NCBI RefSeq assembly: GCF_057098645.1
Contig: NZ_CM169472.1
Strand: one strand, 5' to 3'
DNA length: 64,000 nucleotides
Below, piece after piece: positions 29,335-31,358 of this stretch. The notes under the pieces are model-generated. The model ran no database searches. It was not told the DNA's origin and saw only the letters and a program-made list of their open reading frames with translations. The position numbers and the translations under genes are program-made. Position 1 is the stretch's first letter; every line of letters starts with the position of its first letter.

Positions 29335-30156
29335 ATGCTGTCGCGTCGGGGTCATCGGTTAAGTCGTTTTCGTAAAAATAAACGCCGCCTGCGCGAGCGT
29401 TTGCGTCAGCGTATTTTTTTCAGAGATAAAGTGGTGCCGGAAGCAATGGAAAAACCAAGAGTACTCGTACTGACAGGGGCAGGAATTTCTGCGGAATCAG
29501 GTATTCGTACCTTTCGCGCCGCAGATGGCCTGTGGGAAGAACATCGGGTTGAAGATGTGGCAACGCCGGAAGGTTTCGATCGCGATCCTGAACTGGTGCA
29601 AGCGTTTTATAACGCCCGTCGTCGACAGCTGCAGCAGCCAGAAATTCAGCCTAACGCCGCGCATCTTGCGCTGGCTAAACTGCAAGATGCTCTCGGCGAT
29701 CGCTTTTTGCTGGTGACGCAGAATATAGACAACCTGCATGAACGCGCAGGTAATACCAATGTGATTCATATGCATGGGGAACTGCTGAAAGTTCGTTGTT
29801 CACAAAGTGGTCAGGTTCTCGACTGGACCGGAGACGTTACCCCAGAAGATAAATGCCATTGCTGCCAGTTCCCGGCACCCTTGCGCCCGCACGTAGTGTG
29901 GTTTGGCGAAATGCCACTCGGCATGGATGAAATTTATATGGCGTTGTCGATGGCCGATATTTTCATTGCCATTGGTACTTCGGGGCATGTTTATCCGGCG
30001 GCTGGGTTTGTTCACGAAGCGAAACTGCATGGCGCGCACACCGTGGAGCTGAATCTTGAACCAAGTCAGGTCGGTAATGAATTTGCCGAGAAATATTACG
30101 GCCCGGCAAGCCAGGTGGTGCCAGAATTTGTTGAAAAGTTGCTGAAGGGATTATAA
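29335..30156 (+). CDS. cobB: NAD-dependent protein deacylase (sirtuin)
   Basis: 273-aa ORF with sirtuin motifs [12 protein letters not shown] and CxxC...CxxC zinc ribbon. Confidence 0.9.
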
Positions 30157-30164
30157 AGCAGGAA

Positions 30165-30205
30165 GCATTGCCTGATGCGCTACGCTTATCAGGCCTACAA
30201 GCGGA
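30165..30205. repeat. REP-type palindrome
   Basis: gcctgatgcgctacgcttatcaggc. Confidence 0.45.
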
Positions 30206-30276
30206 CCACAATACCGACGAAAGAGCGGGATAAAACTTTACTGTCCTGACTCATTAGCCACATCCTTGCTAACTAA

Positions 30277-30311
30277 AAAACGGGCGGTAATACCACCGCC
30301 CGCTTGCTGAA
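30277..30311 (-). terminator. terminator downstream of potD
   Basis: aaaaacgggcggtaataccaccgcccg hairpin; T-run on the minus strand. Confidence 0.45.
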
Positions 30312-31358
30312 TTAACGTCCTGCTTTCAGCTTCTGATAATACTCTTCATAAATGCTGCTGGCTGCGCCAACGTCATTCTGCCATTCGCCATTTTTAATGG
30401 TTTCAGCATCCGGGTAGAGCGTCTTATCGTTCGCCACTTCTGGACTTAACAGCTTACGCGCCGCAAGGTTTGGCGTTGGATAACCGATAGTTTCAGCAAC
30501 CTGTTTTGCCACATCCGGGCGCAGCAGGAAGTTGATCAATTTCAGCGCGCCTTCTTTGTTTTTGGCATTTGCCGGGATCGCCAGGCTGTCCATCCAGAAT
30601 ATGCCGCCTTCTTTCGGCCACACCACGTCAATAGGCGTACCCGCCTGGCGTGCAACGAAAGCAGAACCGTTCCAGATCATGCCGAGGTTAACTTCGCCTT
30701 CCATGTACGGGTTAGCCGGGTTATCGGAGTTAAAGGCTGCCACGTTTGGCATCAGTTTTTTCAGCTCGTTATATGCAGCTTCAATCTCTTTCGGATCGGT
30801 GGTGTTACCGGAGTAGCCCAGCTTACGCAGCGCCATCTGGAACACTTCACGGGCATCGTCGGTCAGCAGCAGGCTGCCTTTGTACTCAGGCTTCCACAGA
30901 TCGGCCCAGCTGGTAACGGATTTCGGATCTACCGCATCACCGTTAACGCCAATCGCCGTCGCCCCCCAGATATACGGAATGGAGTAGTCGTTATTCGGGT
31001 CAAACGGCTTGTTGAGCATGTCTGGATCGAGGTTGCTGAAATTGCTTAACTTCGACTTGTCGATCTTCTGGATCATCCCTTCTTTACGCATTTTATCGAC
31101 GTAATAGGTTGAAGGAACCACCAGGTCGTAGGCACCGTCTTTGTACGTTTTCAGCTTGGCGTACATGGTTTCGTTCGACTCGTAAGTCGAATAGATAACC
31201 TTAATACCGGTTTCTTTGGTGAACTGTTCAAGCAGTCCTGGCGGCACGTACTCGGTCCAGTTGTAGAAATACAGCGTGTTGTTGTCATCGGCGTGAGCGG
31301 CGCTCATGCCCAGTGCCAGAGCACCCGCCGCGAGCAGGTGGCGTGACCATTTTTTCAT
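30312..31358 (-). CDS. potD: spermidine/putrescine ABC periplasmic binding protein
   Basis: 348-aa ORF with signal peptide; matches PotD as recalled. Confidence 0.95.
   Translation of the reverse strand: MKKWSRHLLAAGALALGMSAAHADDNNTLYFYNWTEYVPPGLLEQFTKETGIKVIYSTYESNETMYAKLKTYKDGAYDLVVPSTYYVDKMRKEGMIQKIDKSKLSNFSNLDPDMLNKPFDPNNDYSIPYIWGATAIGVNGDAVDPKSVTSWADLWKPEYKGSLLLTDDAREVFQMALRKLGYSGNTTDPKEIEAAYNELKKLMPNVAAFNSDNPANPYMEGEVNLGMIWNGSAFVARQAGTPIDVVWPKEGGIFWMDSLAIPANAKNKEGALKLINFLLRPDVAKQVAETIGYPTPNLAARKLLSPEVANDKTLYPDAETIKNGEWQNDVGAASSIYEEYYQKLKAGR

Follow-up and report, generated by a model that had tools for sequence, protein, structure and literature searches.

The 3′ end of cobB in the 64-kb window (the whole stretch of DNA that was analysed) raises the question of whether this gene has been cut short. 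Its reading frame stops at a TAA (30154-30156) after 273 codons, and the frame that opens at 30155, sharing the last two bases of that TAA, translates as KAGSIA before reaching a TGA at 30173-30175. The preliminary description had correctly reported both the cobB frame and the hexapeptide with its second stop in a shifted frame, although the interval it gave closed at 30160 and the KAGSIA frame extends to 30175. From these observations it proposed that cobB ends six codons early. We consider it close to certain that the window instead carries the ancestral, majority allele of cobB, that the K-12-type allele is the one that lost a T, and that nothing has been truncated, with the enzyme expected to be fully functional. 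What lies at 30130-30160 is a normal allele, neither a lesion nor a sequencing error. The features of the region are collected in Table 1.

Table 1. Features at and downstream of the cobB stop, in window coordinates.
Feature	Position	Strand	Source or remark
cobB CDS, long isoform, NAD+-dependent sirtuin deacylase, 273 aa	29335..30156 (including stop)	+	ORF list, NF001755, Pfam SIR2
Internal ATG (Met38), at which the short CobB isoform begins; 236 aa for the window allele	29446..29448	+	sequence
Native TAA stop of cobB	30154..30156	+	T at 30154 is the base absent from the K-12/BL21-type allele
Out-of-frame, non-coding KAGSIA* stretch	30155..30175	+	coding only in the K-12-type allele, where the T at 30154 is absent
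REP element GCCTGATGCGCTACGCTTATCAGGCCTAC	30170..30198	+	hairpin, dispersed copies; begins 13 nt past the cobB stop
ymfA remnant, first 16 codons	30207..30254	-	alignments; junction at ~30206/30207
Intrinsic-terminator-like hairpin and T-run 3′ of potD	30278..30305	-	terminator scan
potD CDS	30312-31358	-	ORF list, annotation of the O157:H7 record

In the window cobB is preceded by nagK and followed by potD, the latter on the opposite strand. The arrangement of its 3′ end is shared with other genomes: several O157:H7 and O145 records match the window at 100% of the 126 nt that surround the stop, which gives the window the look of an O157-type genome. In the O157:H7 record RefSeq annotates the identical 822-bp gene as an intact cobB with no pseudogene flag.

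The cobB 3′ ends of the window, O157:H7 TT12B, K-12 NCM3722, W/KO11FL, 042 and SCU-387 were compared in one alignment. Across the whole of it there was one length difference, the absence from K-12 of the T at window position 30154. O157:H7 TT12B, W/KO11FL, 042 and SCU-387 all carry this T, together with an 822-bp cobB that RefSeq treats as intact. The cobB of K-12 NCM3722 measures 840 bp and its product, at 279 aa, ends in ...KGLKAGSIA, in agreement with the K-12 C-terminus given in the preliminary description. The two protein lengths, 273 and 279 aa, thus differ because of this single base. Past the stop, the DNA of the window and of K-12 belongs to the same locus, with one synonymous-type SNP (GCA versus GCG) between them, and the match of KAGSIA to K-12 is one of homology rather than chance. 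Over the shared 273 codons the window and K-12 differ at 15 nucleotides, every one of them synonymous, and residues 1-273 are 100% identical. The single-base insertion at about 30145 that had been proposed for the window was therefore right as to a one-base difference, but the base sits 9 nt away, at 30154, and the direction of the change is reversed, being a deletion in K-12.

Seen from K-12 alone, the window carries an additional base and its CobB is shorter by six residues, as would be expected had the window genome gained a base near the 3′ end of cobB and thereby removed six residues from the wild-type protein. Against this stands the distribution of the T, which we surveyed in 5,426 complete E. 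coli genomes. An initial megablast with a 126-nt query left the alleles inseparable by identity band, and allele-specific probes of 32 or 33 nt, built from alignment columns that were invariant except for the indel, were used in its place. At most 27 consecutive nt of a probe match the other allele, and megablast needs a word of 28 nt, so each probe is specific to its own allele. The first two probes left 745 genomes unexplained; individual loci then revealed a variant with a synonymous GGA to GGC change, which a third probe then counted. The window-type allele (...GGATTATAAAGC, probe TTATAAAGC) was found in 2,974 genomes and the synonymous Gly272 (GGC) variant (...GGCTTATAAAGC), with its stop unchanged, in another 702, so that the T is present, and the 273-aa form encoded, in 3,676 of the 5,426 genomes (67.7%). 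The K-12-type allele (...GGATTAAAAGC, probe TTAAAAGC), which lacks the T and encodes 279 aa, accounted for 1,707 (31.5%), a share inflated because laboratory derivatives of K-12 and B have been sequenced so often; its members include MG1655 derivatives, BL21(DE3), MC4100 and strain C. The remaining 43 genomes (0.8%) were assigned to none of the three alleles. Five matches of the window-type probe fell on plasmid-labelled records and the GGC-variant probe had two copies in one genome; these may represent mislabelled replicons or duplications.

The polarity of the change was assessed with outgroups. Species-representative genomes were scanned with a degenerate DNA pattern for a peptide of the C-terminal region of CobB, which recovered 28 loci, 26 of them enterobacterial. 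The enterobacterial set includes E. albertii, E. whittamii, Escherichia sp. MOD1-EC7003 and E1V33, two divergent representatives labelled as E. coli, Salmonella enterica subsp. diarizonae and about 20 Citrobacter species; the scan brought up neither E. fergusonii nor Shigella. All 26 CobB proteins end in ...LLKGL*, the stop being TAA, TGA or TAG. None of the Escherichia outgroups recovered lacks the T at 30154, and E. albertii matches the window base for base across the stop, the 13-nt spacer that follows it and the adjacent REP element. In outgroups beyond Escherichia the DNA past the cobB stop is unrelated. Among outgroup CobBs lying fully inside the fetched loci, most align over residues 1-273 at 90-99.6% identity, and for two Citrobacter proteins the local alignment ends at residue 267. 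The scan also recovered CobB homologues from Telmatospirillum siberiense (locus L025) and Microbulbifer hainanensis (locus L036) that are 57-67% identical overall and contain exactly the same C-terminal-region peptide. Their ends differ (...LLNQG* and ...RELVP*), and the peptide is thus far more conserved than the residues beyond it.

The uniform ...LLKGL* ends and the Escherichia T show the 273-aa end to be the ancestral one and the K-12-type allele to be a product of T loss. Parsimony, applied to the outgroup ends together with the majority frequency of the T in E. coli, likewise makes the K-12 state the derived one. Judged from these comparisons, the window holds the ancestral state of cobB and the indel is derived in the K-12-type allele. 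A lineage-specific insertion in the window genome is refuted by the allele census and the outgroups, and we regard a gain of a base there as extremely improbable. The proposal that cobB ends six codons early fails on the same two counts. An ending at ...LKGL, which the preliminary description had named as the observation that would speak against its reading, is found in WP_000952736.1 and in the 273-aa CobB-L of Salmonella (PMC10965786), though not in K-12.

The same counts bear on whether the T at 30154 could be spurious, introduced during sequencing or assembly. As many as 2,974 independent complete assemblies each contain the exact 33-mer that spans the site, in one copy, which makes such an error implausible; in addition, the flanking 126 nt are matched without a difference in the O157:H7 and O145 records, and the local context, TTATAAAG, contains no homopolymer run of the kind that gives rise to indel errors. 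An artefact at this position is, in our estimate, even less probable than a true insertion.

A further question is whether the protein of the window lacks anything that a functional CobB requires. The Pfam SIR2 domain (PF02146) is complete, with residues 48-221 covering profile positions 1-180 of 180 (E = 4.3e-54), as it is in the K-12 form. The domain ends 52 residues short of the C-terminus, which leaves the KAGSIA tail outside it. The catalytic His147 and the Zn-binding Cys155, Cys174 and Cys177, positions as named for Salmonella CobB (PMC10965786), are all present. Against the NCBIfam equivalog NF001755 (cutoff 318), the window protein scored 597.9 bits and the K-12 protein 599.8. The profile has 278 positions; residues 1-272 of the window protein match profile positions 1-272, and the K-12 protein matches profile positions 1-275. 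The gap of 1.9 bits between the two forms most likely reflects the choice of seed sequences. NF001755 includes tail-like columns, a minor counter-argument to the reading adopted here, and so models the derived, K-12-type tail; its length is a small case of K-12 bias in annotation models. The window protein ends at the position shared by the 26 enterobacterial orthologues and no conserved residue is absent from it; with neither a derived indel nor a domain loss, the gene shows none of the marks of a truncated gene or pseudogene.

Structural and biochemical records agree with this picture. Over residues 39-273 the window protein shows no difference from the E. coli CobB chains that have been crystallised, those of PDB 6RXJ and its relatives carrying KAGSIA. 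The deposited chain of PDB 1S5P ends ...KGLK, and CobB without five of the six tail residues has therefore been crystallised. Two CobB isoforms that differ by 37 N-terminal residues are described in Salmonella and E. coli (PMC10965786; PMC12926920; PMC8603916), and E. coli MG1655 makes both (PMC12926920). In Salmonella these are CobB-L, of 273 aa, and CobB-S, of 236 aa, both active deacetylases (PMC10965786; PMC8603916), and a review quotes 273 and 236 aa for E. coli CobB as well (PMC11139211). Since residues 1-273 equal those of K-12, the catalytic domain is complete and the 273-aa Salmonella CobB is active, the exact protein of the window would be expected to have full NAD+-dependent deacylase activity. 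The preliminary description was right, too, to expect no more than a minor effect on function.

The DNA beyond the stop shows how loss of the T turns part of it into coding sequence. The stop is separated from the REP element by a spacer of 13 nt (30157-30169). Among T-bearing Escherichia lineages this spacer varies at 6 of its 13 positions, the variants in T-keeping lineages being AGCAGGAAGCATT, AGCGGGAAAAATT, AGCGGGAAGAATT, ATCAGGAGTAATT, AGCAGGAGTAATT and ATCATGAGCAATT, whereas the coding bases that precede it do not vary. The shifted frame of Escherichia sp. E1V33 would end after 2 codons. The variable spacer and this early stop show that the KAGSIA tail is not conserved as coding sequence and that the spacer behaves as non-coding DNA.

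The REP element is an imperfect palindrome, its stem (30170-30194) appearing in both the MFE and the centroid folds. The fold energy of the 66-nt region around the hairpin was not exceptional relative to shuffled sequences (z = -0.35), and our claim is accordingly limited to the palindrome itself and does not extend to its thermodynamics. The element is dispersed: the 126-nt query that contains it matched 102,740 places across 5,425 genomes (median 16 in each), the many extra matches being due to the REP inside the query, and one plasmid match spans query positions 80-110 only, which correspond to the REP. Within the 64-kb window there is a single exact copy. In the window allele the element is extragenic, lying between the cobB stop (30156) and potD (30312). 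Its position is shared by E. albertii, E. whittamii and further members of Escherichia (loci L011, L013, L023, L031, L034 and L035), and Salmonella and Citrobacter have no such element there; its retention across the genus Escherichia indicates an old, stable insertion.

These features give a simple account of the two alleles. In the window, cobB terminates at its native TAA to give the 273-aa long isoform, or 236 aa when translation starts at Met38. The minority allele, carried by K-12, BL21(DE3), strain C and, in all, ~31% of the complete E. coli genomes, has lost the T of this TAA, and its translation runs on for six codons, KAGSIA, across the otherwise non-coding 13-nt spacer, until it meets a TGA within the REP next to it. 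The bases accord with this: without the T, the spacer reads as KAGSI, the final Ala comes from a GCC and the stop is the TGA in the REP (GCCTGATG). This TGA occupies REP positions 4-6, and the first 6 nt of the REP are thus coding in the K-12 allele.

The same bases prompt the question of whether the window strain might nevertheless make some KAGSIA-tailed CobB, through programmed +1 frameshifting at UUA-UAA. The stop is preceded by a GGGA-containing, weakly Shine-Dalgarno-like stretch (CUG AAG GGA UUA UAA A), which we take to be a superficial echo of the prfB +1 site. The tRNA-Leu on UUA cannot re-pair with UAU, the codon in the +1 frame, and lineages do not conserve the shifted frame, as its end after 2 codons in E1V33 illustrates. 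We rejected +1 recoding on these grounds, the absence of UUA/UAU re-pairing and of any conservation signal, and give it next to no credence, no more than we give a sequencing error.

A further possibility is that the polymorphism is not neutral, either because the position of the stop relative to the REP has shifted or because the KAGSIA tail itself alters CobB synthesis or stability. Such an effect would add a functional layer to the history proposed above and is compatible with the window allele being ancestral. A REP located <16 nt from a stop is reported to stall ribosomes and so to reduce how strongly the gene before it is translated (Liang, Rudd & Deutscher 2015, related in a passage of PMC12306157). 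The REP begins 13 nt past the stop in the window, the K-12 TGA lies within the REP itself, in the 5′ arm of its hairpin, and the allele without the T has reached a frequency of 31.5%, all of which would fit a difference in expression. However, both alleles are under the 16-nt limit and may be affected alike, which leaves an expression difference as a possibility only; the energy of the hairpin region is unremarkable, and the frequency of the T-less allele is raised by laboratory strains. We therefore think it unlikely, if less far-fetched than an inserted base, that the polymorphism is non-neutral. If stalling does depend on the geometry of stop and REP, laboratory strains and most natural E. 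coli, the O157-type genome of the window included, might differ in CobB dosage or in ssrA tagging, a prospect to which we assign a slightly lower probability still. Were it true, the difference could carry over to global lysine acetylation.

Farther downstream, the interval between cobB and potD (30199-30311) bears a deletion that has removed ycfZ together with most of ymfA, of which the first 16 codons remain. The ycfZ-ymfA pair is present at this locus in K-12, W, 042, SCU-387 and the Escherichia outgroups. A probe for the deletion junction matched 557 of the 5,426 genomes, O157:H7 and O145 among them, and the identical junction occurs on three cobB 3′ haplotypes: the K-12-type without the T, the O157 type and the GGC variant (examples including AR_0369, L038, and WL297, L039). 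All four combinations of the T indel (30154) and the deletion (30206), which lie ~50 bp apart, exist, and this suggests either a recurrent deletion or recombination whose crossovers fell in the REP or close to it. The deletion is separate from the question of the cobB stop and is given here as context only.

The cobB stop site needs neither a correction of its annotation nor a pseudogene flag. The case also carries a caution, in that K-12 is not always ancestral and differences from it should be polarised with outgroups before a lesion is named. Here, the six C-terminal residues of the well-studied K-12 CobB are a lineage-specific read-through into the spacer and the REP. A search of the available literature found no explicit account of the difference between CobB of 279 and 273 aa, nor any paper that describes the hexapeptide at the K-12 C-terminus as a derived read-through; we regard this reading of the hexapeptide as a small, annotation-level point and not as new biology.

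Compared with known forms, the window allele is an already annotated one. WP_000952736.1 (Sir2 family NAD+-dependent deacetylase) has, like the window protein, 273 aa and an 822-bp gene, and no difference between the two was seen, their identity being judged from equal gene length and the identical 3′ end of TT12B rather than residue by residue. This protein is found at the locus in O157:H7 TT12B, W/KO11FL, 042, WP4-W18-ESBL-09, AR_0013 and WL297. K-12 CobB (279 aa; WP_000952737.1; PDB 6RXJ series and 1S5P) shares with the window form residues 1-273, the catalytic domain, the Zn-binding cysteines and the dual starts, but differs from it in the six extra residues KAGSIA that result from loss of the T and in a TGA stop located inside the REP. 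CobB of Salmonella enterica subsp. diarizonae has the same length as the window protein, the same ...LLKGL end and 90.5% identity over residues 1-273, but diverges at ~10% of its amino acids, stops at a TAG and is followed by no REP. With respect to the REP model of Liang, Rudd & Deutscher (2015), in the outline available from PMC12306157, the cobB REP, at 13 nt, falls under the <16 nt limit. The window allele is thus the known, RefSeq-annotated form of CobB with the Salmonella length.
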